Shown here piece by piece: positions 4,627 to 47,047 of a stretch of 64,000 bases of DNA. Every line of letters begins with the position of its first letter. Positions within the stretch are counted from its first letter, which is position 1. Origin of the DNA: Candidatus Cloacimonadota bacterium (GTDB taxonomy: Bacteria; Cloacimonadota; Cloacimonadia; G963667145). The notes under the pieces were generated by a model. The model was not told the DNA's origin and did no database searches. It worked only from the letters and a program-made list of their open reading frames with translations. The stretch spans positions 1,184,001 through 1,248,000 of the forward strand of contig OY762940.1 of assembly GCA_963667255.1 (NCBI GenBank). The letters are read 5' to 3'. A program made the translations under genes and the position numbers.

Positions 4627-4644
4627 CCGGTTTTAAGACTAAAT

Positions 4645-6200: not shown

Positions 6201-6215
6201 TATTCAGGAGAGAAT

Positions 6216-6650
6216 ATGTCCGGAAGGTTTAATGGAATTTCAGAGGTAACGCTAAACCAATACAGGATTGTTATACCTACTCAGATGAAAGAAAAATTTT
6301 CTCCAGAATCTTTTGGCAGAGTGGTTTTGACAATCGGTGTAGGCAAGTCTATCGCTCTATATCCGCTGGATAATTGGGACGAATATTGTGCGAGAATGGA
6401 AGAGGGGACGGACGAGCAAGTTGCGATTATTGACTATTTGGCAGATTATGCAAAAGAGCAAAAAATTGAGGCTTCAGGTCGTGTTAAAATTTGCCAAGAG
6501 CTTTTGGAATATGCAGGCATAGATGAGAAGGCTATTTTAAAAGGGAACGGTAACTACATTTCACTTTGGTCGCCAGAAGAGCACAAACTGAAAATTGAAG
6601 AAGGACTTAAAAAATTCCCGAATTTAACCCCAAAAGATTTGAGAGGATAA
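6216..6650 (+). CDS. mraZ: Division/cell-wall cluster transcriptional repressor MraZ (divergent)
   Basis: 144 aa, two AbrB-like repeats (RIVIP; SGRVKI...YAGI...GNGNYISLW), first gene of dcw cluster before rsmH. Confidence 0.85.
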   Translation: MSGRFNGISEVTLNQYRIVIPTQMKEKFSPESFGRVVLTIGVGKSIALYPLDNWDEYCARMEEGTDEQVAIIDYLADYAKEQKIEASGRVKICQELLEYAGIDEKAILKGNGNYISLWSPEEHKLKIEEGLKKFPNLTPKDLRG

Positions 6651-6651
6651 T

Positions 6652-7548
6652 GTGACTAAACATATACCTGTGTTGTTGGACGAGAGTATTGATTTGTTAA
6701 ATATCAAATCTAACGGCGTTTATGTTGACCTTACGCTGGGCGAAGCCGGACACACCAAGAAAATTTTGGAATCTAATCCTGATTGTTTTGTTTTTGGCAT
6801 CGATAGAGACCAAAGAGCCATTGACTACGGGACAAAAGTTTTGTCTGACTTTATGGGAAGATTTACACTAATCAAAACTGACTTTGCATCTTTCCGCTCG
6901 GAATTGGCTTTGCACAAGGTTGGCAAAGTTGACGGAATTTTATTGGATTTGGGGGTTTCGACTGTGCAAGTGTTATCAGCGGAGAGAGGGTTCAGCTACA
7001 CCAACGACGGACAATTGGATATGCGGATGGACACTTCGTCTGAGTTGAGTGCGAAGAAGGTGATTAACACTTTCAGCAGAGACGAACTAAAGCGAATAAT
7101 TTATGAATTTGGCGAAGAGAAGAAAGCTGGATATTATGCCAGTCAAATTGAAAAAAATCGACCGTTGGAGACTACAGCCGAGTTGGCGGAGATAATTGGC
7201 AAGCACGACAAAAAATCTTTGTCCAGAGTGTTTCAGGCGTTCAGAATATTTGTAAACAAAGAGTTGGAGCAGATTTCCGAAGTTATCCCCAAAGCGATAG
7301 ATGCGTTAAAAATAGGTGGCAGATTGGTGATAATTTCCTACCACAGCAAGGAAGACAGAATTGTGAAGTCGCTATTCAAACAATATGCAGAGAGTTGTAT
7401 CTGTCCGCCTGGGTTGCCCGAATGCACTTGCGGGCATCAAGCCAAATTAAAGATTTTAACCAAAAAACCTATAACACCATCTGAATTGGAAATTGAAAAA
7501 AATAACAGGGCAAGAAGTGCCAAGTTGAGAGTGGCAGAAAGGAGATAA
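6652..7548 (+). CDS. rsmH: 16S rRNA C1402 N4-methyltransferase
   Basis: HIPVLL, DLTLGEAGH, DLGVS, RGFS, LDMRMD, FQAFRIFVNKE, ISYHSKEDR, NNRARSAKLR. Confidence 0.96.
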   Translation: MTKHIPVLLDESIDLLNIKSNGVYVDLTLGEAGHTKKILESNPDCFVFGIDRDQRAIDYGTKVLSDFMGRFTLIKTDFASFRSELALHKVGKVDGILLDLGVSTVQVLSAERGFSYTNDGQLDMRMDTSSELSAKKVINTFSRDELKRIIYEFGEEKKAGYYASQIEKNRPLETTAELAEIIGKHDKKSLSRVFQAFRIFVNKELEQISEVIPKAIDALKIGGRLVIISYHSKEDRIVKSLFKQYAESCICPPGLPECTCGHQAKLKILTKKPITPSELEIEKNNRARSAKLRVAERR

Positions 7549-7550
7549 AG

Positions 7551-7850
7551 ATGAGGAGATTGATGATAGCTTTTTCGGTATTGTTGCTGTTTTTTGTGGT
7601 AATTGGGGAATTGAACAAGCAAGTTTTGCGTGAAAACACGAAAAAAATTAATATGTTGGAAAATTCTAACAGTCTTCTAATTGCGGAAAATAAGGACATT
7701 GAAAGCAAGGTTAATCAGTTGACACAGGAAGTTAAAGAAAAAATATTGTCGAATGGGAGCTTGAGTATGATTACTCCCAAAGAGATTTTTTATGCTAAAG
7801 TTGAAAAAGAGGAAGTTAATTTGGTATTTGTATTTACCGATAAAATATGA
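7551..7850 (+). CDS. Probable FtsL-like cell division protein
   Basis: Single N-terminal TM helix plus coiled coil; position between rsmH and ftsI. Confidence 0.6.
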   Translation: MRRLMIAFSVLLLFFVVIGELNKQVLRENTKKINMLENSNSLLIAENKDIESKVNQLTQEVKEKILSNGSLSMITPKEIFYAKVEKEEVNLVFVFTDKI

Positions 7851-9931
7851 AATTCATTAAGGTCGCCAATTTTACAATTCTTATTATTATGCTTGTTTAT
7901 TTGTTTATAATACAGGTTTTTGACCCGTTTGATTTGGCAAAAGTATGGCGATCGCGACACATTCCGCACAAAAAAATTCTAATCGCTAAAAGAGGCGATT
8001 TTTTGGATCGTTCCGGACGAGTTTTGGTTAGTTCGGACGATTTTTATCAAATAGACATCGACAAAAACCTCTTGAGCATTCATTCACGCAGAACAGGGGA
8101 CGATTTATTGTCTATCTACTATTCGGTTGCCAGGATTTTGGACGATAATCTCAAAATGAGAACTCATCCGCTGCTCACTAAATCTTCGAGTCTTGAGTCG
8201 GTTTATATCAAAAACATGGTGCCAGCAACAGTTGTGAAGAGTATTATTGATGAGTTTAACAAGGCGAATTTGCCTTTGCCCTTGATTTCCTACAACGGCT
8301 CTAAACGGAATTACCTTTCTCAATTGGATTTGGAACCGATAATCGGAGAAGCTAAAAGTGTGAGCAAAATGGTTACAGATAGCAGGATTATTCGTGAAAA
8401 TTTGGTTGGTCTCAGTGGTCTGGAAAAGTTTTTTGAAACAAATTTGCATGGGGAAGACGGATGGCGAAAATTTTATGTAAACGGAACTCCTTACATTAGA
8501 AAGAACTACGAGACAGAAGCCAAAGATGGTGCAAACATTGTCTTAACTATTGATGGGGAAATTCAAAAAATTTTGACTTCGACTTTGCGAGACGGAATAA
8601 AAAAGTATGGTGCTAAATCTGCGATGGGGATAGTGATGAACCCCAATACCGGTGAAATCTTGGCGAGCTGCGGATACGACAATAAAAACGGGAAAGTTTC
8701 CTTGCCGTTCATAAATTATTCGATTTCTTACCTCTTCGAGCCGGGTTCGACTATCAAGCCATTCATTTTGCAGTTGGCACTGGATAATGGGCTTTTTGAC
8801 TTAAATTCCAAGATTGATTGTTCTCCTTACAAAGTGAAAGGCGAGACTAGAACTATCAGAGACCATGAGTCCGATAGCAGAAAAAGCGACACCTTAAACT
8901 TGGAGCAAATTTTACAATATTCGTCTAATGTGGGCGTGATGAAGATTGTGGAAAAAGTAGGTGGAGAGTCGCTCTATAACAGACTGAAAAAGTTGGGGTT
9001 TGGCTCATATCTTCTGACGGATATGTATGGCGAGGAACCGGGGATTTTACGCGACCCATCTCAATGGAGTGGATACACGCTGACCTCTTTGTCCATCGGT
9101 CATGAGATTGCCCTTACACCCGTGCAATTGGCGAGTGCTTATGCCAGTATCGCTAATGGTGGTTACCTTCTTCGACCTTATATCGTAAAAAGGATTGAAC
9201 TACCCAATGGGAAATCTATTGTTAAAAGCAAAAAAATTCTTTCAAAAATTTCCACCAATGAAAACATTAAGACAATCAAAAGTATGATGAGTAAAGTTGT
9301 GGAGGGCGGAACTGCTGTCCAAACCAACATCAAAAATATGCATATTGCGGGGAAGACGGGAACTGCTGAAGAATTGGGAAGAAGTCAGAAAGATAATTTG
9401 GTGCATTCGTCTTCGTTTTGTGGTTTTTTCCCTATCGCAAATCCGAAGTATCTAATTCTTATTGTGTATGAAGGGGCGAAGGGGAAATATCGTTACGCTG
9501 CACAGTCTGCCGTTCCGACATTTCGCCAAATCGTAACCAAGATGATGGTTGACCCCGATATCAATGTTGTGGGCAAGGAGAAGATTTTGGAGATGCCTAA
9601 TTTTATTGGACTGAACAAAGCTGAAGTTAATCGTATTTTGGAAGAAAAGGAAATATTTGGCAAGATAATCCAAAAGCAAGTGAAAGACTCAATTGTGGTT
9701 GACCAGTTTCCTAAGTCGCACTTGAAGTTTGCCACCGGAATACCCATATCGATAATTATGGGGAATGAAAAAGATTTAGAGGTAAAAGATTCGCTGAATT
9801 TTGTAGGATTAACAATGCGTGAGGCTTTTAGTTTAGCAAAAGAGCAAAACATCAACATTGAAGTTACAGGCTCAGGTGTTATCAAATCCCAAGACGATTT
9901 TGGATTTATATTTGATTTGAGGGCAGAATGA
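7847..9931 (+). CDS. ftsI: Class B penicillin-binding protein FtsI/PBP3 with C-terminal PASTA-like domains
   Basis: RG.FLDR, EPGSTIK (SxxK), SSN, KTGT motifs; MPNFIG and NFVG PASTA-like repeats; dcw position. Confidence 0.88.
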   Translation: MKFIKVANFTILIIMLVYLFIIQVFDPFDLAKVWRSRHIPHKKILIAKRGDFLDRSGRVLVSSDDFYQIDIDKNLLSIHSRRTGDDLLSIYYSVARILDDNLKMRTHPLLTKSSSLESVYIKNMVPATVVKSIIDEFNKANLPLPLISYNGSKRNYLSQLDLEPIIGEAKSVSKMVTDSRIIRENLVGLSGLEKFFETNLHGEDGWRKFYVNGTPYIRKNYETEAKDGANIVLTIDGEIQKILTSTLRDGIKKYGAKSAMGIVMNPNTGEILASCGYDNKNGKVSLPFINYSISYLFEPGSTIKPFILQLALDNGLFDLNSKIDCSPYKVKGETRTIRDHESDSRKSDTLNLEQILQYSSNVGVMKIVEKVGGESLYNRLKKLGFGSYLLTDMYGEEPGILRDPSQWSGYTLTSLSIGHEIALTPVQLASAYASIANGGYLLRPYIVKRIELPNGKSIVKSKKILSKISTNENIKTIKSMMSKVVEGGTAVQTNIKNMHIAGKTGTAEELGRSQKDNLVHSSSFCGFFPIANPKYLILIVYEGAKGKYRYAAQSAVPTFRQIVTKMMVDPDINVVGKEKILEMPNFIGLNKAEVNRILEEKEIFGKIIQKQVKDSIVVDQFPKSHLKFATGIPISIIMGNEKDLEVKDSLNFVGLTMREAFSLAKEQNINIEVTGSGVIKSQDDFGFIFDLRAE

Positions 9932-12564
9932 CAGAGATAGAAAGAGTAGACATTTCGCTATATTCGGGCATCGCATCCGACTCGAGACAGGTAAAGCAAA
10001 ACTATATCTTTATTTGCATAAAGGGTTTATTGCAAAATGGACACGATTTTGTCAATGATGCTATCAAAAACGGGGCATCGTTAATTATCGCCGAAGATAA
10101 AATCGAGACAAAAGTTCCTGTAATTGTGTGTAAAGACAGTCGTTTGGCAGCCGTCTATTTGTCAGACAAGTTTTACAGCAACCCGTCAGACAAGTTGAAG
10201 ATAGTGGGTATAACCGGAACTAACGGGAAATCGAGTTGCTCTTTCCTAACTCACAGAGTTTTAACTAAGTTAGGGTATAAAGCCGGCGTGATAGGAACCG
10301 GTAAATATCTAATAGGGACGGAAGAGTTCACGAACGAACGGACGACTCCCGACATTATAGAATTGCGGTATATTTTGTCCAAGATGGTAGAGGCTAAGGT
10401 TGAATTTGTTTTGATGGAAGTTTCTTCACATGCTATTGCTTTACAAAGAGTTGCAGGGATTAAATTTGATTTTGTTTGTTTCACAAATTTATCTCAAGAT
10501 CATTTGGATTTTCATAAGACTTTTGAAAACTATGTAGAAATTAAAATTAATTTTCTCAAAAATGCGATTTTTTGTGGGAGCATTGCTCTGATAAATTGGG
10601 ATGACGAGCAAGGTAAGATACTTGATAGCAATAAAATACTAAAGATTTCCTCAATAGATAAGAAAGCCGATTATTATTATAAATGTGAGAAAAGCGATTT
10701 GTCAGGGATTAAATTTTATCTAAACGATTTGAGCTGTTCCTCATCACTTTTAGGCGAGATTAATCTTTTCAATTCGGCTTTTATTTTGTCGCTGTTGGAT
10801 GTTATGCTGGGTAAAGTTTTTACCGATGTTTTACAGGGAATAAAGCCTTTGGAAGGCAGATACAATCTTATTAGGGACAATGTTTTGGTCGATTACGCTC
10901 ATAGTCCGGACTCGTTGCAGAAAGTGTTGCAATTTGCAAAAAAGTTAGGCAGGAAACGGATAATTACTTTGTTTGGCTGTGGTGGAAATAGAGACCGCGA
11001 TAAACGCAAAAAAATGGGCAAGATTGCCGTTGGAAATTCAGATTTGGTGATAGTGTGCGAGGACAACTCCCGCAAGGAAAATGTGGTTGATATTGTCTCC
11101 GAGATAGCTGATGGTAACGATATGTCTAAAATAGTTATTATAAAGTCTCGTAAAATTGCTATAACTTATGGATTGTCAATCAGTAAGGAAGAAGACATTT
11201 TTTTGGTTTTAGGGCGAGGAGCAGAAAAAAAGATTGATAGGGGGTTTGAGGTTTTGCCGTTTTCTGATTTAGAATATTTATCAGGAAATTTGGACAATTC
11301 GTTCAAACAAGTTTTTGATCCGCTTTGGGTTGAGAAAGTTCTCAATTCATCTTTTGGAGGAAATTTTTCCTTGGATTTTGTGTTTGAGAGAGTTGTAACG
11401 GACTCAAGAAATTTAGAGGAAAACTCTTTGTTTATAGCGTTACCTGGGAAAAATTTTGACTCAAATCAATTTGTAAGACAAGTGCTGGAAACTCAAGGGT
11501 GCTGTGCAGTTGTTAATAAAGAATGCGAAATTGAAGATGACAGGGTGTTGGTCGTTGAAGATACAGTGGATGCTTACCAATCTTTGGCTAAAGCTTATTT
11601 ATCGCATTTCGATCCTGTGAAAATCGGCATTACCGGTAGTGTGGGAAAAACCACCACGAAAGAGATATTAAGCAATGTGTTGAGCCAAGACGGGAAAGTG
11701 TTGAAAACTTTTGCCAACGAAAATAATCAGATTGGAGTCCCTAAGACGATTTTTCGCCTAACCCCTTCGCACAAATATTTGTTGATAGAAATGGGAACTG
11801 ATCACCCGGGGGAAATAGAAAAGCTTGCATCGGTTGTTTGCCCGAATATCGGGATTATTACCAATGTGAGTGCCAGTCATCTGCAAGCTTTCAGGACAAT
11901 TAAGGGCGTTTATCAAGAAAAAAAGAGGTTGTTTGATTATAGCGATATAAAGTTGACATTGGCAAAGGAATTTTTTGATGAGAGTTTGGATTTTGATATA
12001 ATTGAGAAAGATGAAAATGTTTTTGTCAAAATCGATAAACAGATTTTTGAATTGGGGAATCAACCGAGATTTAGAGCAGATGCAGCAGCTATAGCTGTAA
12101 AAGTGGGAATGATTTTGAGTGTCGATAACTCTAAAATCTCCAAAGGTTTATCTCAGTTTCTTGACTTGGAAAATAGGTTAGAAATCAAAAATATTGATGG
12201 CGTTGATTTTATTTTCGATTGTTATAACGCAAATCCATTGTCCATGAGAGAATCTATAAAATTTTGGAAAAATTATAAGAAAAATAGAAATCATATTGCA
12301 ATTTTGGGAGATATGTTGGAGTTAGGAGACAAGGAAATCGATTTTCACGCAGAAATTGGCAAATTTGTTACAGGCTATACAATTTTTGGTGTTGGCAGGC
12401 TCTCTAAGCACTACAATCCGACATATTATTATGGGAATGTTGACAGATTTTGCGAAAATCTCCCAAAGTTTTCTTCGGGAGATGTTGTTCTGATCAAAGG
12501 TTCAAATGGAGTTGGGTTGACAAAACTAAAGAAGATTTTGGAAAGTAAATCAAAGGAATTATAA
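9928..12564 (+). CDS. murEF: Fused MurE-MurF peptidoglycan precursor ligase
   Basis: One 878-aa ORF with two P-loops (GITGTNGKS; GITGSVGKTT); MurE motifs MEVSSH, DHLDFH, DYAH, CGGNRD, DNSR; MurF motifs NNQIGVP, EMGT, DCYNANP, GDMLELG, KGS. Confidence 0.93.
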   Translation: MTEIERVDISLYSGIASDSRQVKQNYIFICIKGLLQNGHDFVNDAIKNGASLIIAEDKIETKVPVIVCKDSRLAAVYLSDKFYSNPSDKLKIVGITGTNGKSSCSFLTHRVLTKLGYKAGVIGTGKYLIGTEEFTNERTTPDIIELRYILSKMVEAKVEFVLMEVSSHAIALQRVAGIKFDFVCFTNLSQDHLDFHKTFENYVEIKINFLKNAIFCGSIALINWDDEQGKILDSNKILKISSIDKKADYYYKCEKSDLSGIKFYLNDLSCSSSLLGEINLFNSAFILSLLDVMLGKVFTDVLQGIKPLEGRYNLIRDNVLVDYAHSPDSLQKVLQFAKKLGRKRIITLFGCGGNRDRDKRKKMGKIAVGNSDLVIVCEDNSRKENVVDIVSEIADGNDMSKIVIIKSRKIAITYGLSISKEEDIFLVLGRGAEKKIDRGFEVLPFSDLEYLSGNLDNSFKQVFDPLWVEKVLNSSFGGNFSLDFVFERVVTDSRNLEENSLFIALPGKNFDSNQFVRQVLETQGCCAVVNKECEIEDDRVLVVEDTVDAYQSLAKAYLSHFDPVKIGITGSVGKTTTKEILSNVLSQDGKVLKTFANENNQIGVPKTIFRLTPSHKYLLIEMGTDHPGEIEKLASVVCPNIGIITNVSASHLQAFRTIKGVYQEKKRLFDYSDIKLTLAKEFFDESLDFDIIEKDENVFVKIDKQIFELGNQPRFRADAAAIAVKVGMILSVDNSKISKGLSQFLDLENRLEIKNIDGVDFIFDCYNANPLSMRESIKFWKNYKKNRNHIAILGDMLELGDKEIDFHAEIGKFVTGYTIFGVGRLSKHYNPTYYYGNVDRFCENLPKFSSGDVVLIKGSNGVGLTKLKKILESKSKEL

Positions 12565-29326: not shown

Positions 29327-31304
29327 AAATGATGTTTTAGAAGCAATTTACAATGTTGATGGCTGTAACTTGCAAGAATTAAGTAAATTATGCAATATAA
29401 GTAAACATGAACGCAAAGACTTGCTCAAAATTCTTCGCAAATTAGAGAAAGACAAGTCAATATCTTATTCAAATAGCAAGTATGTTAAGGGTATAAACTC
29501 TGTTGAAACAGGAAGATTTGATGCTCTTGCTCTGATGAAAGGGCATCAGTTTGGCTTTGTTATTACTGAATCCGACCATATATTTGTAAACATTGAAGAT
29601 ACTTTAGGTTTGTTTCATAACGACCTTGTTGAAGTGCAAGTTACAGGCATTAAGAAGAATGGGAAGGTTGGGAAAGTAATTAGGATTGTGGAAAGAGGCA
29701 GAAAGGTTTTGGTGGGAACTGTAGCTAAATTAGGCAATCAAGCGATGTTGACAGGCATAGGTGGTCATTTTCATAGGGATGCACAAATTATCAATCCGGA
29801 AATTGCAAATTCTGGAGACAAAGTTGTTGCTTCCGTTAGTTTTTGGGGTGATTTGGAAGTTTACCCTCGGGTAAAAATAACGGAAGTTTTGGGTCGTAGC
29901 GGTGATATTCAGACGGAAATTTTATCTGTTATCTATTCTTACGAGTTGCCTCTTGAGTTTGATGATAAACTTGTGAAGGAAGCAGAAAAACTCAACGAGA
30001 GCTTTGATGTTGAAGATGATATGAAGGAGCGGAAAGATTTGCGGGAATTACACACCTTTACCATTGATCCTGCCAGTGCCAAAGATTTTGACGATGCCGT
30101 TTCCGTGCAAATCAATCATAATGGAGAATATGAACTTTTTGTGCACATCGCTGATGTTTCTCACTTCGTCAAACTGGGCTCTGCCCTATTTGAAGAGGCT
30201 CTATCACGGGGGAATTCCTACTATTTTCCCAAGAGAGTCATTCCAATGCTTCCGAAAATTATCTCCAATTCTTTATGCAGTTTGCGTCCTAACGAAGACA
30301 AATATACAATTACCGTAAAAACTGTGCTCAATAAAAATTTTGAAATTTTGGAGCAAAGTGTTTTTAAATCGGTAATTTGTTCCAATGTGCGATTTAATTA
30401 TGAGCAAGTTGATGAAATTTTTGAAAAAGGGAATTTGGAAGAGATAACTAAGGAAGATAAAGATGCTTTGTTGTTGGCCGATAGGCTTTCCAAGGGTTAT
30501 TTCAAAAAAAGAAAGACCTATATTCAATTTTCGTTGCCTGAGGCTGAATTTGAGTTTGATGAGGACGGTTTACCGATAAATATTTTTAGGTCTGAAGAGA
30601 CGGCTTCGCACAAACTGATTGAGAATTTTATGTTAATCGCTAATGAGTATGTGGCCAAATTTTTATCCTCAAAATCAAGCATTTATAGGGTTCATGAGCC
30701 TCCTGAATATGCTGATGTGCAAAAGGTAAAAAAAGAGCTTGAACAAAATAGCATTGAGGTCCCAGCATACAAAAATCCGACGGAATTTTATCAAAGAACA
30801 TTGAAAGTATTAGATTCCGATGATAAAAAGAGGACTTTCGAGCGAAAAATTTTGCGAAGTATGAAAAGAGCTGAATATAGTTTAACCAATTCACATCATT
30901 TTGGGATAGGAATCGATTTTTATACGCATTTCACTTCCCCCATCAGAAGAATTTGTGATTTGGGGATACATTTGTTGATAAAAAACGCAATTAATTCCGA
31001 AAAATTACTAAAAAAAATAGTCAACAATGCGAACGAGAAGGAACAAATTGCTACAAACGCTGAAAATGATGTGCAAAAGCTTTATTACTTGCAATTTATG
31101 AAGAAAAGATTGGGCAATGAATATACGGCTACTATCGTTGACATAAAAAGAAATGTAATCAAATTGGAATTGGTTAAATATCCTATTTTTGTTAAGGTTT
31201 TCAGTGAAAATAATGCGTTGCGAAATAAAAAAATTAAACTTACTCAAAGAAAATCGGTTAAAATTATTAAGGTAACCGATGAAATAGAAGTAAAAATTAT
31301 TTAA
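29316..31304 (+). CDS. rnr: Ribonuclease R (RNB family)
   Basis: FGFV cold-shock region, TIDPASAKDFDDA, HIADVSH, IENFMLIANE, YRVH, YTHFTSPIRR. Confidence 0.9.
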   Translation: MLNENDVLEAIYNVDGCNLQELSKLCNISKHERKDLLKILRKLEKDKSISYSNSKYVKGINSVETGRFDALALMKGHQFGFVITESDHIFVNIEDTLGLFHNDLVEVQVTGIKKNGKVGKVIRIVERGRKVLVGTVAKLGNQAMLTGIGGHFHRDAQIINPEIANSGDKVVASVSFWGDLEVYPRVKITEVLGRSGDIQTEILSVIYSYELPLEFDDKLVKEAEKLNESFDVEDDMKERKDLRELHTFTIDPASAKDFDDAVSVQINHNGEYELFVHIADVSHFVKLGSALFEEALSRGNSYYFPKRVIPMLPKIISNSLCSLRPNEDKYTITVKTVLNKNFEILEQSVFKSVICSNVRFNYEQVDEIFEKGNLEEITKEDKDALLLADRLSKGYFKKRKTYIQFSLPEAEFEFDEDGLPINIFRSEETASHKLIENFMLIANEYVAKFLSSKSSIYRVHEPPEYADVQKVKKELEQNSIEVPAYKNPTEFYQRTLKVLDSDDKKRTFERKILRSMKRAEYSLTNSHHFGIGIDFYTHFTSPIRRICDLGIHLLIKNAINSEKLLKKIVNNANEKEQIATNAENDVQKLYYLQFMKKRLGNEYTATIVDIKRNVIKLELVKYPIFVKVFSENNALRNKKIKLTQRKSVKIIKVTDEIEVKII

Positions 31305-31391
31305 AGCTATTTATTAGAAGTATTTAGACAACTTGCTTATTTGCTGTATGTTATATTACGCAAGATAAAGTTAATTATTTTGGGAGAAGAT

Positions 31392-33146
31392 ATGAAAGTT
31401 AAAAAGAAACTCAAATATTTGGTTTGCTGTTTTGTTGTTCTTTTGGTTGGTTTATATTTTTCTAGGAATATAATTTTTGCTTACATATTTGAATTTGGAG
31501 CTGAATCGGTATTTGGAGCTAAAGCAGAAATTAAAAAGTGTAATCTGCAAATTTTTTCCGGCAAGTTGTCTTGGGAAGATTTTGAGGTTGCAGACAAAAA
31601 TAAGCCTATGAAAAATCTTTTCCAGACAGGATATGTAGAATTAGATTTTGGCTTGTCTGCCCTATTCAAAGGGCAATTTGTCTGTGAAAATGTTCTTATT
31701 GATAGATTGGAATTTGGAACTAACAGAACAACTGATGGTAGTTTACCCAAGAAAGCGGATAAAAACGAAAAGTCAGCTTTTGCTGGGGCTGCTGTCAATT
31801 ATTTGGAGAATAAGAAAAAATCAATTCCTATCTTGGAATATCAATCTTTGAATGTAGATTCTATTTTGAGTGTGGCTAAATTTATTACTCCCGCGAAAGC
31901 AGATTCTTTGCGGAAAGAGATAGAAGATGCTAACGAATTTTGGACAAATGTGTTGGCTGATAAGGAATATAAGCAAAGAATAAACGGAATTAAGCAAAAA
32001 TTTGATGATTTGGATTTATCAAATCCCGATATAGATATCAAAGAGTTGGGTGTTTTATACAGGGAAAGCAGTGCTTTATACAAAGAGATTAAGGAGAATA
32101 AAGCTGAATTTGAAAAGCAAATTGCATTACTCAAGACGGCAAATGAGCTGAAAGATTGGGCTAAACAAGATTACGACAATGCTATGAAAATGGTAAAATT
32201 CCCTGATACGCAGGGTAAACAAATCGGAGAATTGCTGTTCGGTGATTTTGTTTATGATTTGATATTGAAGGGCGTTACAGCTATCAAAACAGTTAGAACT
32301 GCGTCTTCGGCAGAAAAAAAGAAAGAAAAGCAAAAATTGCGGTTTTGGTTGAAAGAAGCACAAATAAATTCAAGGCTAAATAACGGAATCACCATAAAAG
32401 GAAATATCAAAAATATTTCCAATGCCCAAAAGTTAACGGGAGAACCGACAATCATATCTCTTTCGCTAACTTCCGAAAAAATTGAATTTATCAAAATTGC
32501 GGGTGAACTCAACTATTTGAGCGACAAATCAACGGAAAGCTTTCTTGTTGATATGAAAGGTGTTGGGTTGAGTAACATAAAGTTAAATCAAGAAGTGTTG
32601 CCACCTAAAATTAAGTCATGCTCTCTAAATGGTAAAACATCGCTGAGGGTCGTTGGTGACGATATTTTGGTTGATAATTTTACAAATATTAATGATATTT
32701 TGTATTCATACGAATATGAAAAACCTGTATCCTCTCAAATGAAAGAGATAGCAGAAATAGTTGGAAGTTCTGCAAATGCCGTATGGGTAAAGGTTAATTG
32801 TGAATTTACTTCCGATAAAAATGTGAGTGAAATTAGCTCCAATCTCGATGAAATTGTAAAAAATGCTTTATACAAAAAGTTTTCCAAAGAAAGCAAAAAA
32901 TTGGAAGAAAAAATACGAAAAAAAATAGGTTTACAAAAAGAGCAAAAGGAATTAAGTTCACTATTCGAAAAGTTGGATAGTAGAGTGCAGTCTATCTTGT
33001 TTACATCAGAGCCGATTAGTGCCGAGGAAAAAGGCAAAAAAGAGAAAGAAATTAATGACAATTTAATAGAAAAAGGAAAGGAAATAATAGACAACAACGA
33101 GATTAAAGATAAGGCTAAAGAGTTAATAAAAGGAATAAAATTTTGA
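31392..33146 (+). CDS. TIGR03545-like AsmA-related membrane-anchored protein
   Basis: N-terminal TM, GAKAEI, VAD...PMKNLF, GT.R.TDG.L motifs; coiled-coil middle; SNLD near C-terminus. Confidence 0.65.
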   Translation: MKVKKKLKYLVCCFVVLLVGLYFSRNIIFAYIFEFGAESVFGAKAEIKKCNLQIFSGKLSWEDFEVADKNKPMKNLFQTGYVELDFGLSALFKGQFVCENVLIDRLEFGTNRTTDGSLPKKADKNEKSAFAGAAVNYLENKKKSIPILEYQSLNVDSILSVAKFITPAKADSLRKEIEDANEFWTNVLADKEYKQRINGIKQKFDDLDLSNPDIDIKELGVLYRESSALYKEIKENKAEFEKQIALLKTANELKDWAKQDYDNAMKMVKFPDTQGKQIGELLFGDFVYDLILKGVTAIKTVRTASSAEKKKEKQKLRFWLKEAQINSRLNNGITIKGNIKNISNAQKLTGEPTIISLSLTSEKIEFIKIAGELNYLSDKSTESFLVDMKGVGLSNIKLNQEVLPPKIKSCSLNGKTSLRVVGDDILVDNFTNINDILYSYEYEKPVSSQMKEIAEIVGSSANAVWVKVNCEFTSDKNVSEISSNLDEIVKNALYKKFSKESKKLEEKIRKKIGLQKEQKELSSLFEKLDSRVQSILFTSEPISAEEKGKKEKEINDNLIEKGKEIIDNNEIKDKAKELIKGIKF

Positions 33147-39224: not shown

Positions 39225-39242
39225 CAATTTATGGAGAGAAAG

Positions 39243-40499
39243 ATGAATTTTGATCAAATTAGCAGAGAGAGTGAGTTTTACGGCAACACTTCCGCCGTGG
39301 AATTGATAGAGAAGTATGGTTCGCCATTGTATGTATATAATGAGAATATTCTGAAAAAACGCTGTCGTGAGATGATGAATCTTGTCAGATATCCGAAGTT
39401 TAAGGTGCATTATTCGGTCAAAGCTAACTCCAACTTGGAGTTAATGAAGATAATCCGCAACGAAGGTCTGTATGTAGATGCGATGTCCCCTGGGGAGATG
39501 TATGCGGAGCTAAAAGTCGGATTTAAGCCTGAGCAGATTTTGTTTATTTGCAATAATGTGTCCGCTGAAGAGATGAGATTTGCCATAGACAGAGATATCA
39601 GAGTCAGCGTTGATTCCTTGTCTCAACTGGATTTGTATGGACAATTAAATCCCGGTGGAGATGTTTTTGTGAGGATTAATCCTGGAATTGGTGTTGGTCA
39701 CAGCGAAAATGTGATTACCGGTGGCAAGAAAACCAAATTTGGTATAGAGATGAAATCTATCCCCGAGCTCAAAAATATTTTGGCAAAGCATAAACTCAAT
39801 CTTATCGGCATCAATCAACACCTCGGTAGCCATTTTATGAGTTGGTTCGAGTATATCAACTCCGTGAATGTTGTTTTGAGGATTGCCCGAGAGTTTGAGG
39901 ATTTGCAGATTATAGATTTGGGTGGTGGCTTTGGTGTGCCCTATCACAAGCAAGACAACGAACAAAGGCTCAATCTTTCCGAACTTGGCAGTGAGCTTAA
40001 CGCTCGACTTTTGCAATGGGCTAACGAATATAATAGAGAAATCGAGTTTCGTGTAGAACCTGGTCGTTATATCGTGGCGGAATGCGGTATTCTGCTTGGC
40101 ACAGTGTTTACCAAAAAAGAGAACGATTATCGGAAATACATCGGGACAAATCTTGGCTTTAACCAATTCAAAAGGAAAGTGATGTATGATTCATATCACG
40201 ATATTGAAATTTATCGCAAAAGCGAAGACATCGACCTCAATGACAGAGAAAAAGTGATTATCGTCGGCGATATCTGTGAATCGGGAGATATCATAGCTTC
40301 CGACCGCTATTTGCCGAAAATCGAAGAAGGCGATATTCTTGGCGTGATGGATGCCGGAGCCTACGGCTTCAGTATGGCATGCAACTACAACAATAGATTG
40401 CGACCAGCTGAGGTTCTCATCGATTCCGAGGGTAATGACAGATTGATAAGAAGACGCGAAACATTTGAAGATTTGATGGCGTGCTTTGTGGAAGAGTAA
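39243..40499 (+). CDS. lysA: Diaminopimelate decarboxylase
   Basis: YSVKAN (PLP Lys), DAMSPGE, TKFG, HLGS, DLGGG, EPGRY, ICESGD, GAYG..M..NYN.R. Confidence 0.92.
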   Translation: MNFDQISRESEFYGNTSAVELIEKYGSPLYVYNENILKKRCREMMNLVRYPKFKVHYSVKANSNLELMKIIRNEGLYVDAMSPGEMYAELKVGFKPEQILFICNNVSAEEMRFAIDRDIRVSVDSLSQLDLYGQLNPGGDVFVRINPGIGVGHSENVITGGKKTKFGIEMKSIPELKNILAKHKLNLIGINQHLGSHFMSWFEYINSVNVVLRIAREFEDLQIIDLGGGFGVPYHKQDNEQRLNLSELGSELNARLLQWANEYNREIEFRVEPGRYIVAECGILLGTVFTKKENDYRKYIGTNLGFNQFKRKVMYDSYHDIEIYRKSEDIDLNDREKVIIVGDICESGDIIASDRYLPKIEEGDILGVMDAGAYGFSMACNYNNRLRPAEVLIDSEGNDRLIRRRETFEDLMACFVEE

Positions 40500-40517
40500 A
40501 ATAGCTGATTAATTTTT

Positions 40518-40552
40518 AAAAAACGGAATTGAAACTCAATTCCGTTTTTTTT
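40518..40552. terminator. Bidirectional intrinsic terminator after lysA
   Basis: AAAAAACGGAATTGA-AAC-TCAATTCCGTTTTTTTT. Confidence 0.9.
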
Positions 40553-40633
40553 GTTATACTTGATTTAGTTTAGATATTTGGGTGGAGGGCGTTATTGGCT
40601 GTTGTATGTAGTTTAGCTTATTATATATTTTAC

Positions 40634-41917
40634 TTACTCTCCCTCATTTAGGTTAGTCTCTCTCAATAAACCTATTTCGCTTGGAATATCAAAATCATCA
40701 ACGGTTTCATTGTCATATAAGAACACAATTTTTTTTCCGCATTTATAAGCATATCCGATTTCAAGAGAGGTTTTTGTTCCTACATATTTGTCAAAGTTGC
40801 AAACTATAATCATGTCACATGTTTCAATTGCTTTTAAGTGAAGTGCTTCAACAGACCAAGTGCAACGGTTAATAATTTTATCATTTTTAAAAAGAATAAA
40901 ACCTTTCTCAGACCCAACCACTTCAGTATTTAATGGACTATCTACAGTAATACCTTGAGTTTTGAGCACGCCAATTAGCTTTGTAATTTTATCAAGTTGT
41001 TTATTAAAACTTCCGCAAATTACAACATTTTTTACCTCTTGAACATTTATTCCATCAATTAAATTTGAGTCTGAGGGAATTATTTTGTTTATCCCATATT
41101 GCATACAAATAGCTTGAGCTATTGCGGAACAAGCTCTTGCTCCATTCATCCAAGCCGGATTATTAGGCATCATATTACGCAAATCAGCAATTGTTATTTC
41201 AGAAAATATACGTTTATTCTGAATACAATAATTATCAATTGTAATCATTGATGGATGATTTTCATCATCAAAAATATTGTTTTTCTCTAAATAATATCCT
41301 GCAACGTTCATATATGTTAATTCTCCACCTGTATATATTGCAGTATCATATCTTCTATCAACAAAAGGAAGCATATTTGAAATATACTCAACTACTTCGC
41401 TTAAAGGAGTTGGGCTGTACTCTTCATTTATCGCGTTATATTTTTTTAGTATTGTTCCAACACCCAAAGATAACATTTTTCGTTCCGTTACGAAACCGTT
41501 ATTGTAAAAAATCAATTCCGTTGTTTTTCCTCCTATATTTATAATCACTAACTTATTCTTATAATCACAATTTCCTATCCATGCTTTTTCCAAATAAAAT
41601 GCCTCTAATTCATGTGAAACAATATTAAAAAAAAGTCGAGTCATAGTATAAAATTCTTCAATAAAAGCTTGCTTATTAGTAAGCTCTCTAAAAATTCCTG
41701 TAGCAAACAACTTAGTATTACTACGTGTAAGTGATAATTCTTCTATCGTTTCATTAAAAAACGAGTACATGTTTTCTTTATTCAGACTTGATAAACCTAT
41801 CGCTGAGTCAAATTCATCCTTAAAATCAAATGTTTTCGCTTTAATAAGTTTTACTCTTACCCCATCATGTGTATATATTTTTACAGTTGAAGATCCTACA
41901 TCAATTAAATATTTCAT
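40634..41917 (-). CDS. Ppx/GppA-like ASKHA domain fused to nucleoside 2-deoxyribosyltransferase-like (NDT) domain
   Basis: IDVGSSTVK, FATGIFRE, VSHELEA, INIGGKTTE, TGG, SNLIDG (Ppx/GppA-NTPDase-like); C-terminal VVICGSF...HLKAI..CD...GTKTSLEIGYA...K (NDT-like); ATG at 41917 after TAAGGA. Confidence 0.72.
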   Translation of the reverse strand: MKYLIDVGSSTVKIYTHDGVRVKLIKAKTFDFKDEFDSAIGLSSLNKENMYSFFNETIEELSLTRSNTKLFATGIFRELTNKQAFIEEFYTMTRLFFNIVSHELEAFYLEKAWIGNCDYKNKLVIINIGGKTTELIFYNNGFVTERKMLSLGVGTILKKYNAINEEYSPTPLSEVVEYISNMLPFVDRRYDTAIYTGGELTYMNVAGYYLEKNNIFDDENHPSMITIDNYCIQNKRIFSEITIADLRNMMPNNPAWMNGARACSAIAQAICMQYGINKIIPSDSNLIDGINVQEVKNVVICGSFNKQLDKITKLIGVLKTQGITVDSPLNTEVVGSEKGFILFKNDKIINRCTWSVEALHLKAIETCDMIIVCNFDKYVGTKTSLEIGYAYKCGKKIVFLYDNETVDDFDIPSEIGLLRETNLNEGE

Positions 41918-41954
41918 TTTTTCATCCTTAGTTATTGTTTTTTTCCGTAATAAG

Positions 41955-44072
41955 TTAATCAATATTTTCTATTGGCCAATATTCTTTTGGAATGAATGAT
42001 AATTGCACATCCTCAATTGGCTTTTGCCAAAATGCAATTGTTTTCCTTAAGGCATATGCATAATATATTTCGCATTTTGTCGATTCCCCTATATATCCAT
42101 TATTATATTTATTACATATAAAAAGGACATCACAATCATCTATTGCTGTTAAGTGTTCATACTCTGTGTCGGGAGAAATATCTTTTTTTAACTTTCCCTT
42201 TCGATCAAATTTTGGGCTTAATACCTTAACATCTTTCATTTCTTCCATTTTTTTACTGGCTTTATACAAGTATTTAGTTCCTTTATCATGAGTAGTCCCA
42301 CTAATTACAATATTAAAAACATACGCATTTATATTTGCACTAATAGTTAAATCGTCTTTCGGAATTACTATCTTATTATTTAGCTTATCAAGAATAGTTT
42401 CAATAATTATATGTCCAAATTTGAAGCCATGTAGTCTTTTCACCATTGTTTCATCGTCATACTCTTTTTTTAAGGACTCTAAATAATTTGCAGAAAATAA
42501 CGCTTCTCTATTATGAATTTTATATTCATCTTGAGAAAGACATTGCTCATTTGCATTTTGCTTTAGTCGATATCCCATTTCATTCATAAATTTCAATTCA
42601 CCCTTTAGTATAATCGCTTGATTAATCTTTACTCCATCTAGCGATGATTCTATTTTATTTTCTATAAATTTCTTTATTTTATTAATTGAGTTATCATCCC
42701 ATACTTCCGATGCAATATTAGTGGATACATAAGTTTGAACATCTTTTATCGTTACTAATAAATTGTACTCATGATATTCTTTTCCAGAATAATATAAAAT
42801 ATCTGTGCAATGAGAACCTATATTAATTATTGCCGTCCCATCACTTAAATTTCCAAACAAACGATCAATGTTTTCAGTTGTTTTCTCTTTAGAGATAATA
42901 TTAAAATACAGATTTGTTTCTTTATAGAATTTCCGGATAACATCTTTTAACTTTTTAGGCTCATTTTCGTTAAATATTTCCCCAAATCTATAATCTACGA
43001 AAACTTTTCTCAGCATTTGAGAATCATTTTTATGTACTTTCTCTGATTGTAATAAGGATTTTACGCAAGCTATAATTTCATCGAGATGAAAATTGTCTTT
43101 AAAAACATCACAGTTATAGCTTATCATCTCAAGTTCCTTAGAATTATCTTTGTCTATAATTTCAAAAAGACGACATGATGTTGTTCCAATGTTTATAAAG
43201 TAACCTAATGGTCCAGCTACTTTTTTAGGTTTTTTATTCATATTATTTTGTTGTTTTTTTTTTTGCGTAATGCTTCCTGTTGATATGTTTCTTTTTTTGG
43301 GCAATTTATCAAATGCATTTTTTTTTAAAAACACGTGTTCTAATAATGATACAGCTGCCTTTGAAGCCATAATTTGATTTTTTTCTTTGTTCGGATTTTC
43401 TTTATTTACTCCCCAATCACAAATCGCTTTTACAATTATCCATTCGTCCATTCTTGCTTTTTTGCATGCAGCATAAGCCCCACGTCCTTCCATTTCTCCA
43501 CCAATTGCACGTGGTGCATCCTTAAAAAGTTTTTTCTTGTAGACAAGATCATCTACAACTTTATTTCCTGATAGAATCATTCCAAATTCACATTTTAATT
43601 TTCTTGAGCCACTATAGTTCTCCCATGTTTTTGAGTAATTCTTAAAAACTGATAATAATGTTTCTCCTGCCTCTGCTCTTACTCCATCAGATAGGAATTT
43701 TCCATTTGTTATTTTACCACTTTCACAATCTACCATAATTTCTGATATTAAAACATCTCCAATATGTTGCTTAGGGTTTTTTTCATTTCCGTTCTCTTTA
43801 CCAAATGCAATTCCAAGCAAAATTACAGCATCTGGTTCCCACCCTTTAATAGCCGCATTAATTGAAAATAATGCAGCTCCTGTTTTTGCTGTTCCTTTAT
43901 TTTGCAATTCAAAATGAATTATATCATAATTCCCTATTTCCCCAACATTATAAAAATTGTTATCATCGGTGGCTTTAGCCCGCTGATTCTTTTCGTAATT
44001 AAAATTTTTACAATTTAGTAATGCATTTGTTTCATGATTGTTCGCCGTTACAAGTAGAAATCGTTTCTTCAT
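41955..44072 (-). CDS. PNP/MTA-SAH nucleosidase-like domain + degenerate Ppx/GppA-like ASKHA domain + NDT-like domain
   Basis: LVTA...E, LLGIAFG, GDVLIS, SGNKVV, GEMEGRG, VKAICDW (PNP_UDP_1); INIGTTSCR and INIGSHCTD (ASKHA); IVISG...HLTAIDDCD...GESTKCEIYYA (NDT-like); ATG at 44072 after AGGAGA. Confidence 0.75.
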   Translation of the reverse strand: MKKRFLLVTANNHETNALLNCKNFNYEKNQRAKATDDNNFYNVGEIGNYDIIHFELQNKGTAKTGAALFSINAAIKGWEPDAVILLGIAFGKENGNEKNPKQHIGDVLISEIMVDCESGKITNGKFLSDGVRAEAGETLLSVFKNYSKTWENYSGSRKLKCEFGMILSGNKVVDDLVYKKKLFKDAPRAIGGEMEGRGAYAACKKARMDEWIIVKAICDWGVNKENPNKEKNQIMASKAAVSLLEHVFLKKNAFDKLPKKRNISTGSITQKKKQQNNMNKKPKKVAGPLGYFINIGTTSCRLFEIIDKDNSKELEMISYNCDVFKDNFHLDEIIACVKSLLQSEKVHKNDSQMLRKVFVDYRFGEIFNENEPKKLKDVIRKFYKETNLYFNIISKEKTTENIDRLFGNLSDGTAIINIGSHCTDILYYSGKEYHEYNLLVTIKDVQTYVSTNIASEVWDDNSINKIKKFIENKIESSLDGVKINQAIILKGELKFMNEMGYRLKQNANEQCLSQDEYKIHNREALFSANYLESLKKEYDDETMVKRLHGFKFGHIIIETILDKLNNKIVIPKDDLTISANINAYVFNIVISGTTHDKGTKYLYKASKKMEEMKDVKVLSPKFDRKGKLKKDISPDTEYEHLTAIDDCDVLFICNKYNNGYIGESTKCEIYYAYALRKTIAFWQKPIEDVQLSFIPKEYWPIENID

Positions 44073-44376
44073 AAGCCATTCTCCTCTCAAAATATAGTAC
44101 CTGTCTATTTAATTTCAAATTAAAATATTTTGCATTTATGTTGTTTTGTTTTTTAATATTTATCTTAATTTCCCTTCCAAATTGTACACAACATTTAAAT
44201 AACCTCAACTGTGTTTATTTATCCAAATTGGGAGGGATAAACACAATTGCCTTTATTTTCCTTTATATTTTTATTCACAATAAAAAAGTTAAGTTTTCTT
44301 TGTCAACTCATATTTCCTTGACTGATTTTTCCTTTTAATCTTCTTAAAATCACTATCTAAATCAAGGAAAATTTAA

Positions 44377-44916
44377 ATGAATTGTATAGAAATTGCCCTT
44401 AAACACATTCGCCAAGATTTGTGGGATTCGTATTTTGTTCATTCTGTTTTGGTTACGCAGATGTCTTTGGAGATTGCGGAGAATTTGAATTTGGACGAAG
44501 CAATCAAACAGTTTATCCGAGAAGCTGCTATGCTCCACGATATAGGTATCGGAGAAGTGAGTATGGACAAGAAAAATCCGCAAAACAAGCCACCATACAT
44601 CACTCACGGACTCGTTGGTTTTCGGATTTTGAGCGAATTGGGCTACCCCAAGCACGCACTCGTCTGTCGCAATCACATCGGTGTAGGGCTTACCAAGGAG
44701 ATTATCTTGCGGAACGGATTTCCTTTGCCTGCTGAGGATATGACACCATCTACCTTACCTGAAGAGATAATCACTTATGCGGACTTGTTTTTTAGCAAAA
44801 GCAATCCTTTCAAAAAGAGGAGTTTTGCCGAGGTTGTGAAGAAAATAGAAACCTACGGGCAAGAGCAATTAGACAAATTTCATCAACTGCATAAAAAATT
44901 TTCTTCGCTCAAATAA
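44377..44916 (+). CDS. HD-domain (HDIG) phosphohydrolase
   Basis: HS, AMLHDIG, HG..G, H.G.G, EEIITYAD. Confidence 0.88.
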   Translation: MNCIEIALKHIRQDLWDSYFVHSVLVTQMSLEIAENLNLDEAIKQFIREAAMLHDIGIGEVSMDKKNPQNKPPYITHGLVGFRILSELGYPKHALVCRNHIGVGLTKEIILRNGFPLPAEDMTPSTLPEEIITYADLFFSKSNPFKKRSFAEVVKKIETYGQEQLDKFHQLHKKFSSLK

Positions 44917-44949
44917 AAAAGGCTTTCTCATCTTTCGATAAAAAAGCCT
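44915..44949 (-). terminator. Probable intrinsic terminator of fusA
   Basis: Imperfect hairpin AGGCTTT...AAAGCCT with A6 tract (U-tract on - strand). Confidence 0.6.
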
Positions 44950-44968
44950 AAACTATTTTAAAAGCTAA

Positions 44969-47047
44969 TTACTTTTTAGCCTCTTTGTTTTTTTGGATTT
45001 CAGCCAAAATGTCATCTTCCAAGTTTCTCGGCACTCTCTCGTAACGGTCAAACTCGATAGAAAGCTCGGCTTTACCTTGGGTGTTAGACCTCAGAGCAGT
45101 TCCGTATCCGAAGATTTCTGACAAAGGAATCTCGCCAACTACGATGGCAAGGTGCTCCTCGTCTCTTGTCTCCAACACGGTTCCTCTTCTTTGGTTGATA
45201 CTTGTCAGCACCGCACCGCGAAATTCGATAGGAACATCGATGGAAACTTTCATCATCGGCTCAAGGATAGCAGGAACAGCTTTCTTGTAATTCTCTCTGA
45301 TGGCAGATTTTGTGGCAAGCTCAAAAGCAAGTTGTGAAGAGTCAACCGGATGGAAATCACCATCGTTGATGATCATCTTGATGCCAACAGCAGGGAAACC
45401 TGTGTAGTAGCCTTCTTCCATCATTGCATTAAACCCTTTTTCACAGCCTGGGAAATAGTTGGATGGAATAGCACCACCTTTGATATCTGTCTCGAAAACA
45501 TTGTCATCGCTACCACTTGGCGAGATAATTCCCATAATTTTAGCGTATTGACCGCGTCCACCAGATTGTTTTTTGTGGATGTATTCAAAAGGAATTTCTT
45601 TGGTAATGGTCTCACGATAAGCAACTTGAGGCTTGCCCACTTCCAATTCCACGCCATATTCTCGCTTCATTCTCTCGATGTAAACATCCAAGTGAAGCTC
45701 GCCAATGCCTTGGATAATCGTCTCGGAAGTCTCTTCGTCAAGGTAAGATTTGAAAGTCAAATCCTCTTTGGTAAACCTGTTCAAAGCCTTTGCCATATTG
45801 GTTTGAGACTTGTTGTCTTTTGGCTTGATAGACAAAGAGATAATCGGCTCAGGGATGTGAGAGGCACGCAATCTGTAGTGAATGCTTGGGTCGGTAAAGG
45901 TGTCGCCCAGTGCACAATCAACCCCGAAAATAGCACCGATATCGCCGGCTTTGAGCTCGTTCAACTCTATCATCTCGTCAGCGTGCATTTTGGCAAGTCG
46001 TCCGACTTTCACTTTTTTTCTGGTTCTGTTGTTGATAATCTCGTCGCCTTTTTTGATAGCACCTTGATACAGTCTGATGTAAGTCAGCTGACCGTATTGT
46101 TGGTTTTCCAATTTGAAAGCGTAAGCGACAGTAGGGTCGGACTCGTTCATACTTAACACAACGGTAGCATCATCGTTGTTCACATCGAAACCTTCGTTGC
46201 AGATTTCCGTAGGGTTTGGCAAATAACTTGTGATAGCCTCAAGAAGTGGTTGCACACCTTTGTTTTTGAAAGCGGAACCCATGAAAACAGGAGTAATCTT
46301 ATCGTTGATAACACCAAATCTAACGACTTTTTTTATCAGCTCGGGAGTTTCCGTCCCTTCCAATATGGCTTCTGCCAAATCGTCGTCCAACATGGAAAGT
46401 TCATCCAACATTTTTTCGCGATACTCTGCAGCTTGGTCAGCCAAGTCACTGGGGATATCTTCGTAGCGGATTTTTTCACCGTTTTCACCGTCAAAATATG
46501 TTGCTTTCATTTTTATCAAATCAACAATACCTTTGAAGTCATCTTCTTTGCCGATAGGGATTTGCATCATTATGGCGTTTCTTCCCAATTTTTCGCGTAA
46601 CATCTCTGTCACACGGAAAGGATTTGCTCCGATTCTGTCTAATTTATTGATAAAAGCTATATTTGGCACATTGTTGCGGGACAATTGTCTATCCACAGTA
46701 AAAGACTGAGATTGCACTCCACCAACTCCGCAAAGCACTAAGATAGCACCGTCCAAAACCCTAAGAGCGTTTTCCACCTCCACGGTAAAGTCCACATGCC
46801 CGGGTGTATCGATAATATTGATGTCGGTCTCTCCCCAACTGACATAGGTAGCCGCAGAAGCTATCGTAATTCCTCTCTCTCTCTCCAACTCCATTGAGTC
46901 CATTTTTGCTCCGACGCCGTCTTTGCCCTTAACCTCCGAGATTTTGTGTATCTTATTGCAATAGAACAAGATTCTTTCGGTAAGGGTAGTTTTGCCGGAA
47001 TCAATGTGAGCACTAATACCAATATTTCTAGTTTTTTCTAAGTTCAT
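44969..47047 (-). CDS. fusA: Elongation factor G (spirochaete/mitochondrial EF-G1-like)
   Basis: [45 protein letters not shown]. Confidence 0.95.

Follow-up and report, generated by a model that had tools for sequence, protein, structure and literature searches.

The 64,000-nucleotide window analyzed here (positions 1,184,001 to 1,248,000 of contig OY762940.1, assembly GCA_963667255.1, from a Candidatus Cloacimonadota bacterium) contains two minus-strand open reading frames (ORFs), termed genes A and B, which are separated by 37 nt and located between lysA and a gene for an HD-domain protein (Table 1). Comparison with homologues indicates that A and B are paralogues travelling as a pair, and that A has lost the catalytic residues of its Ppx/GppA domain and gained an exchangeable N-terminal effector. 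A model-generated first-pass annotation, made from the sequence alone, had described two co-oriented genes between the lysA terminator and the HD gene, and this arrangement was confirmed by the ORFs, the hairpin, and the flanking genes.

A two-gene insert at a variable chromosomal site

Table 1. Features of the A–B locus (window coordinates).
Feature	Position	Strand	Description
Whole insert	40501–44374		Variable lysA–HD site; shared with 0/5 same-genus genomes
lysA	39231–40499	+	Flank of the pair on the gene B side
Hairpin	40518–40550		15-bp perfect stem with A/T runs on both sides
Gene B	40634–41917	−	427 aa; Ppx/GppA domain and NDT domain
Gene B, residues 294–427	40634–41038	−	NDT/MilB-type N-glycosidase fold; nucleophile E386, His360, first strand without Tyr
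Gene B, residues 1–293	41039–41917	−	Ppx/GppA domain; D6, R77, E105, and E134 kept, second Asp is N127
Gene A	41955–44072	−	705 aa; putative PNP effector, linker, degenerate Ppx/GppA domain, NDT domain
Gene A, residues 584–705	41955–42323	−	NDT/MilB-type domain; H640 and E668 largely kept
Gene A, residues 289–583	42324–43208	−	Ppx/GppA fold without the catalytic set (N294, G364, T398, N417, D424); likely receptor
Gene A, residues 251–288	43209–43322	−	Lys-rich linker, predicted disordered (predicted local distance difference test, pLDDT, <50 at 264–284)
Gene A, residues 1–250	43323–44072	−	PNP/MTAN-fold nucleosidase; GGEMEG (191–196), KAICD (215–219); putative exchangeable effector
Promoter-like site	44277–44306	−	Upstream of gene A; 10/12 consensus, consensus match only
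HD gene	44377–44916	+	Flank of the pair on the gene A side

The hairpin is likely a terminator common to lysA and the convergent A–B operon. Upstream of gene A, one promoter-like site was found by a consensus scan that returned 35 such sites versus 23.5 expected by chance. The two genes have GC contents of 29.6% and 30.1%, and GC at third codon positions is 20.6% compared to a median of 42.5%, at about the 6th percentile among 1164 ORFs. The AT-richness noted in the first pass stands in relation to the genome (39.3% GC); AT-rich stretches occur elsewhere in the window as well (26% GC at 31000–31499). An assembly artefact was ruled out by a 43.9-kb contig from the sequencing runs containing this DNA, which spans positions 40497–46000 with zero differences.

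Gene B is missing from five of five complete genomes of the same genus. In three of these relatives, lysA and the HD gene are only ~40, ~50, and ~430 bp apart, and a fifth relative carries three genes in between, one of them encoding a GH18 hydrolase. What lies between lysA and the HD gene thus varies among genomes, and horizontal gain is the simplest explanation for the pair. Around the insert, neither terminal repeats nor a target duplication were detected, and the lysA end occurs only once in the genome, so that no integration mechanism was found. In the fourth relative (G001, L021:1153–3563), the same site contains a piece of a Mutator transposase and a gene with a RelA/SpoT domain matching PADLOC PDC-S33 (E = 5.7e-20); an alarmone-synthetase-like gene there occupies the slot that holds the Ppx/GppA-like pair here.

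Vertical inheritance in metabolic operons had been named in the first pass as an observation that would speak against defence; the distribution is instead patchy. A search of 231 other genomes from the phylum did not find the core of A (its ASKHA–NDT part; 1/232 positive), and in the family of another carrier, one of 401 genomes has A. Carriers include Bacillota, Actinomyces, one Thiotrichaceae genome, and Porphyromonas gingivalis. No relatives were found in IMG/VR viral contigs or in 50,697 phage records, and the A core was absent from 72,556 plasmids; B matches six Streptomyces plasmids in its NDT part only.

Two minor observations concern the edges of the insert. Positions 44186–44290, upstream of gene A, form an imperfect palindrome of ~100 bp with four further copies in the genome (74–84% identity), possibly a small repeat element. 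At 40325–40526, the lysA 3' end is represented in runs X1 and X2 by two alleles that differ at 14 sites, all synonymous; their summed depths equal the depth of the insert-carrying contig. They may reflect a strain mix, or a recombination trace adjoining the insert.

Gene A as a degenerate paralogue of gene B

The five domains assigned in the first pass (one PNP, two Ppx/GppA-like ASKHA, and two NDT-like domains) all held up in profile searches, AlphaFold models, and fold searches. For gene B, Pfam assigned Ppx-GppA with E = 6.8e-9 (36 bits vs a cut-off of 27) and NDT with E = 1.9e-4, under the gathering score; the NCBIfam Ppx and GppA models scored far under their cut-offs. In the predicted model (pLDDT 93.5), residues 1–296 resemble the Ppx/GppA structure 1t6d_A (Z 18.6, root-mean-square deviation 4.0, 284 aligned), and residues 296–423 resemble the NDT 6evs_B (Z 11.7, root-mean-square deviation 3.3, 116 aligned). 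Further fold matches of the NDT region were MilB (Z 10.4) and ThsB (Z 10.0); a profile match to ThsB reached E = 0.029 over 41 residues only. MsbA matches to the NDT profile were treated as chance.

Gene A (model pLDDT 83.4) is more divergent. Its N-terminal part matched the MTAN structure 3dp9_C in Foldseek (E = 1.6e-15, TM 0.79 on the target), and the NCBIfam PNP/MTAN match (E = 7e-8) remained under the cut-off. The Lys-rich linker described earlier is present and predicted to be disordered. The middle domain matched the Ppx/GppA structure 1t6d_B in Foldseek (E = 3.2e-13, TM 0.62 on the target); no sequence profile detects Ppx/GppA there, and a sequence search of the PDB gave no match for the core of A. 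The Pfam NDT match of A is weak (E = 0.026), and the domain is assigned through profile alignment to the NDT domain of B.

When profiles of A residues 285–705 and of B were compared with HHalign, they aligned end to end over 384 columns (probability 100, E = 3.3e-47). By this alignment, the Ppx/GppA–NDT part of A is a paralogue of B. The two copies differ in their active sites. The conserved Ppx set comprises D7, R86, E114, D136, and E143 in DrPPX, with E114A costing most activity (PMC11234463). Among 108 B homologues, D6 is kept in 106, R77 in 108, E105 in 108, N127 in 107, and E134 in 105, i.e., four of the five Ppx residues are retained, and the equivalent of D136 is Asn in 107/108. The catalytic Glu, present in 108/108 B homologues, was found in none of 51 A proteins and in 2 of 18 more distant ones. 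In A, the catalytic Glu, the Arg, and the loop Asp are replaced by T398, G364, and N294, respectively, and A fixes residues of its own in this domain (R301, D360, K490, and E492). As the catalytic set is missing, the Ppx/GppA domain of A probably serves in binding or regulation and is unlikely to be a second phosphatase.

For the NDT domains, we relied on the residue roles described for a CMP N-glycosidase, i.e., a general-acid Asp and a nucleophile Glu (PMC10603095). B shares the fold and the nucleophile Glu of the NDT/DNPH1/MilB N-glycosidases, and E386 and H360 are both kept in 107/108 homologues. The Tyr/Phe–Asp–Glu triad of these enzymes is incomplete in B: His360 sits at the general-acid Asp position (alignment to 4jen_A), and the first strand lacks Tyr/Phe (register read by eye). 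Both NDT domains of the pair carry His in place of this Asp. In A, the Glu (E668) is kept in 45/51 homologues and 12/18 more distant ones, and the His (H640) in 49/51 and 18/18.

The first pass had proposed to ask whether homologous pairs co-occur. A B-type gene is directly downstream of A in all 22 loci with context (8/8 from genomes and 14/14 from metagenomes; 18 distinct). In four of the 22, the partner is shorter (256–260 aa) and comprises a single ASKHA lobe followed by NDT. Among 50 A homologues lacking context, 26 have a longest contig identical in size to that of a listed B, which we used as a same-contig proxy. Tree distances of A and B correlate (rho 0.52, Mantel p 0.001; 27 pairs, i.e., 26 proxy pairs and the window pair), a correlation that travelling together alone would yield. 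In the ASKHA tree, paired B proteins form one clade apart from stand-alone forms (35/36, FastTree support 0.94), and A proteins form a separate clade (14/14); the weakly supported root of this tree (0.71 to 0.85) bears on whether A branched off from paired B or at an earlier point. Some B homologues are longer (P0003–P0006, P0012, P0014, and P0019; 502–606 aa), with partly duplicated NDT segments, and several of these pair, by the same-contig proxy, with PRTase-CE and deaminase forms of A.

An exchangeable N-terminal domain and its genomic context

To compare the N-terminal part of A across the family, we sorted 51 A proteins by domain: 32 carry PNP, 15 carry none, and one each carries PRTase-CE, a deaminase, TIR, or an unannotated helical domain. 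A further 18 representatives include SIR2 (E = 1.3e-20), caspase (3e-15), two SMEK (1e-31), and calcineurin plus PNP forms, and catalytic motifs are present in the swapped-in domains of this set. Among the PADLOC models matched by swapped domains are ThsA, LmuA, a pAgo-associated REase, a retron PRTase, and caspase. The PNP forms retain the EME motif in 31/32 and [KR]xI[CS]D in 32/32 cases, and the PNP of the window pair matches PDC-M60C (E = 5e-12) and a 'PN-superfamily effector' (E = 2e-7), which is suggestive only of a Cap17-clade immune PNP. A quick tree of the core places the PRTase-CE form as sister to a PNP form (support 100) and the deaminase, TIR, and helical forms among PNP forms. 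The same-contig proxy gives a B partner for A proteins with PRTase-CE, deaminase, TIR, helical, or calcineurin domains. In both SMEK forms, an additional NDT stretch resembling that of B is fused to the protein.

Immune effector domains are thus exchanged on a fixed core, as in anti-phage systems; the replacement of PNP by SIR2, TIR, caspase, PRTase-CE, deaminase, and SMEK/nuclease domains is the effector-swap pattern of immune systems. The PNP of A therefore appears to be one exchangeable effector among several. Placement of this kind was the earlier basis for classing PNP among immune effectors, and (d)ATP loss was shown for Cap17 and DtcC (10.1101/2023.01.24.525353). Two effector-less A loci carry an extra, third gene upstream (L060:7929–8708 and L115:470–1333) with an NDT/TIR-like N-terminus; the one in L115 matches Pfam NDT, and the one in L060 gave no match in the domain search. 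One possibility is that this gene encodes a detached effector or a sensor.

The first pass had also suggested looking for clustering in defence islands. Named systems adjoin 4 of the 18 distinct pair loci: Gabija (L113), ZacB/ZacC of Azaca (L118, placed after rlmD), a type II restriction–modification system with HNH and AbiD (L111/112), and AbiLi (L041). Two more loci (L110 and L115) adjoin PDC candidates, giving 6/18 in all, and six are next to integrase, relaxase, type IV secretion, or insertion sequence genes (L027, L030, L041, L060, L106, and L113). The control comprised every gene (147 in total) lying no more than 5 kb from 14 stand-alone loci of B relatives, drawn from 29. No two-gene named system occurred at these loci (0/14 vs 4/18, with unequal sampling), but near-full-length single-gene PADLOC matches were found at three and a nicking-enzyme match at a fourth. 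Since the control loci also gave single-gene matches, and since the neighbours scanned at pair loci were chosen ones on contigs that were in several cases short, the modest enrichment over the control is suggestive only. An upstream block comprising an integrase, a TPR-containing protein, and an ATP-grasp ligase is common to L030 (740–6316) and L113 (3367–7907), and in L030 additionally includes a lysine aminomutase-like radical SAM gene.

B relatives also occur alone. Among 80 genome loci kept, 72 are without A (a count limited by short contigs in some cases); they belong mostly to Patescibacteria, small-genome archaea, and Clostridia/Bacilli, and encode Ppx–NDT or Ppx-only proteins. An MPG glycosylase is located beside six stand-alone loci, and NUDIX accompanies stand-alone genes nearby (L045, L054, L099, and L103) or as a fusion (L102:5130–6506, NUDIX and Ppx, 458 aa). 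Other neighbours, from the 63 chosen ones that were scanned, include Ham1, an HD nucleotidase, thymidylate kinase, and guanylate kinase, and L057 (9104–11239) encodes an adenylate-kinase-like and Ppx–NDT fusion of 711 aa. These nucleotide clean-up neighbours suggest that the ancestral role of the Ppx–NDT family was the clearance of odd nucleotides.

Candidate mechanism and relation to known systems

Effector swapping, strict A–B pairing, patchy spread, and defence or mobile neighbours speak for the defence reading proposed in the first pass, with an enrichment that is modest. From these sequence comparisons, we consider it highly probable that the pair serves defence of some kind. The explanation we favour, at a rough probability of 0.4 for its exact wiring, is an abortive-infection system in which an abnormal polyphosphorylated nucleotide, sensed by the dead cleft of A, would bring about release of the effector. 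All of its steps are inferred from what was observed, namely the paralogy, the catalytic loss in A, the pairing, the effector exchange, and the patchy spread. NDT-fold enzymes are dimers with shared active sites, and A and B may hence assemble via their NDT domains. At rest, B would remove phosphates and cleave the base from the ligand, holding it under a threshold. Phage infection would lift this ligand, for which the candidates are (d)NTPs that are modified or non-canonical and nucleotides of an alarmone-like kind; its binding to the dead cleft of A would turn on PNP. Like Cap17 and DtcC, PNP would then release adenine from (d)ATP, so that the cell halts. The evolutionary route would resemble that of Kongming, from clean-up enzyme to dead receptor, applied here to a Ppx/GppA–NDT enzyme.

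Several observations weigh against this explanation. The 15 A proteins without an effector do not fit it (some may be cut short), and named systems flank only the 4/18 pair loci described, with single-gene PADLOC matches at 3 to 4 of the 14 controls. Asn in place of one metal-binding Asp and His in place of the NDT general-acid Asp leave both activities of B altered or uncertain. Short B forms, which lack the second ASKHA lobe, indicate that the phosphatase of B is not always needed and thereby weaken the eraser step, and as the NDT Glu of A is mostly kept, A may itself be catalytic.

As the short forms point to the NDT domain of B, not its phosphatase, as the indispensable part, they also keep two rival explanations alive. 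According to the first, which we consider unlikely, B would make a messenger on infection, e.g., by base exchange, and the dead pocket of A would bind the product and fire the effector, as in Thoeris. The fold similarity of B to ThsB, the likeness of NDT and TIR active sites (PMC11204291), the near-invariant E386 and H360, and the second NDT stretch on the SMEK forms are consistent with it, as is the usual two-gene layout of synthase and receptor-effector. However, B has no obvious phage-sensing domain, and paired B proteins are close in sequence to stand-alone ones from clean-up contexts, with no catalytic-residue change marking a new product. Less probable again is a guard or toxin–antitoxin arrangement, where B silences A by binding and a phage protein targeting B (an inhibitor or a nucleotide-binding protein) frees the effector, with no small-molecule ligand involved. 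The constant presence of a B-type gene with A would be expected under such an arrangement, and retron Ec86 cages an NDT-like effector likewise (PMC13276650), but the invariant catalytic residues of B and the distinct conserved cleft of A would be left unexplained.

Two further explanations fit less well than the synthase and guard rivals. The pair could be a mobile cassette for modified-nucleotide salvage or clean-up, with PNP as an added salvage step, an alternative already raised in the first pass. It suits the stand-alone B relatives with their MPG, NUDIX, Ham1, HD, and kinase neighbours; the closest solved folds of the PNP are housekeeping MTANs, and 12/18 pair loci have no PADLOC neighbour among the genes scanned. 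It suits the pair less well and is improbable there, because SIR2, TIR, caspase, SMEK, and PRTase-CE domains, which take the position of PNP in other A proteins, play no part in salvage, the patchiness is extreme, and paired B proteins form their own clade. Least probable is the first pass's direct depletion, with all domains as enzymes in series taking phosphates and then bases off (d)NTPs to starve the phage: B retains its two sites, the NDT glutamate persists in A as well as in B, effector-less A forms exist, and an NMP-hydrolase domain was proposed as effector in type VIII Thoeris (10.64898/2025.12.03.692087), but the exchangeable PNP and the dead ASKHA site of A speak against such a fixed pipeline, and caspase and nuclease-type effectors do not fit it.

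The first pass knew of no described system combining PNP, Ppx/GppA, and NDT domains, and neither did our searches reveal one: the ASKHA–NDT core was matched by no PADLOC model (PADLOC dated 2023), and no description was found in a full-text literature search, which misses most subscription papers. The main text of 10.1101/2023.01.24.525353 mentions neither Ppx nor deoxyribosyltransferase, and Ppx has zero mentions in the available texts of 10.1101/2023.01.24.525353, 10.64898/2025.12.03.692087, and PMC13276650. It is thus very likely that the pair represents a defence system not described before, built on a new core. The logic of a sensor with a swappable effector is already known; the core, and any messenger, would be new.

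Among known systems, Kongming offers the closest parallel in origin: its HAM1 clean-up enzyme lost the catalytic Asp and became a dITP receptor for a SIR2 effector (10.1101/2024.12.20.629578). In both cases, a nucleotide clean-up family yields a catalytically dead copy as would-be receptor beside an effector. Here, however, the dead module is Ppx/GppA–NDT, the active paralogue stays in the operon, and the effector is fused and exchangeable; the insert holds A and B alone, without a HAM1-like KomB, a SIR2 KomC, or an (adenosine) deaminase KomA. Cap17-clade PNP effectors (CBASS Cap17, Detocs DtcC, Avs, pAgo, and DRT8) share the N-terminal PNP with intact motifs in an effector slot, but none of their sensor modules occurs in the pair. 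Thoeris (ThsA/ThsB) and retron Ec86 share a flavodoxin-like NDT/TIR fold with a catalytic Glu (PMC11204291, PMC13276650), and one A homologue has a ThsA-like SIR2 domain; unlike them, the pair lacks SLOG, Macro, and reverse transcriptase domains and carries NDT behind ASKHA in both genes. CD-NTase, histidine kinase, ThsA–ThsB pair, and reverse transcriptase, which identify CBASS, Detocs, Thoeris, and retrons, are all absent from the insert. Ppx/GppA phosphohydrolases (Aquifex 1T6C/1T6D and E. coli GppA) and NTPDases resemble B in fold and in 4/5 conserved catalytic residues, but B has ~19% identity to them and differs by the Asn for the second Asp, the NDT in place of the C-terminal domains, and the dead paralogue alongside. 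Finally, the N-glycosidases DNPH1/Rcl, MilB, and NDT have the fold, the Gly–Ser phosphate motif, and the nucleophile Glu in common with the pair, in which the triad Tyr is absent and Asp is changed to His.

More broadly, a Ppx/GppA–NDT enzyme and its dead twin could be the writer or eraser and the reader of a nucleotide messenger, which would constitute a new immune signalling class with at least seven effector types and the first immune Ppx/GppA (ASKHA) receptor; we hold this tentatively, at slightly short of even odds. If true, this class possibly ties alarmone-like or base-modified nucleotides to abortive infection. Earlier immune cores (CD-NTase, TIR, and HAM1) each exposed a new messenger or phage weak point, and the core fold here is known from polyphosphate and alarmone metabolism. 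An active enzyme, a dead twin, a stand-alone relative in a clean-up context, and seven effectors form a built-in natural experiment. As the system is compact (two genes, 3.4 kb), is present in cultured strains (L029 and L060), and offers clear catalytic mutants, the question of the ligand is directly testable.

A last observation concerns the Streptomyces plasmids matched by B. Three of them (L122, L123, and L124, ~4400–12500) encode a protein of 260 aa that shares this NDT domain (31–33% identity) in a conserved cluster with an S-adenosylmethionine methyltransferase, a uracil-DNA glycosylase family member, an AMP-binding protein, ketosynthases, and a thioesterase. This cluster may represent a base- or nucleotide-modifying pathway, and the NDT family of B recurs here next to a DNA glycosylase, as it does elsewhere.

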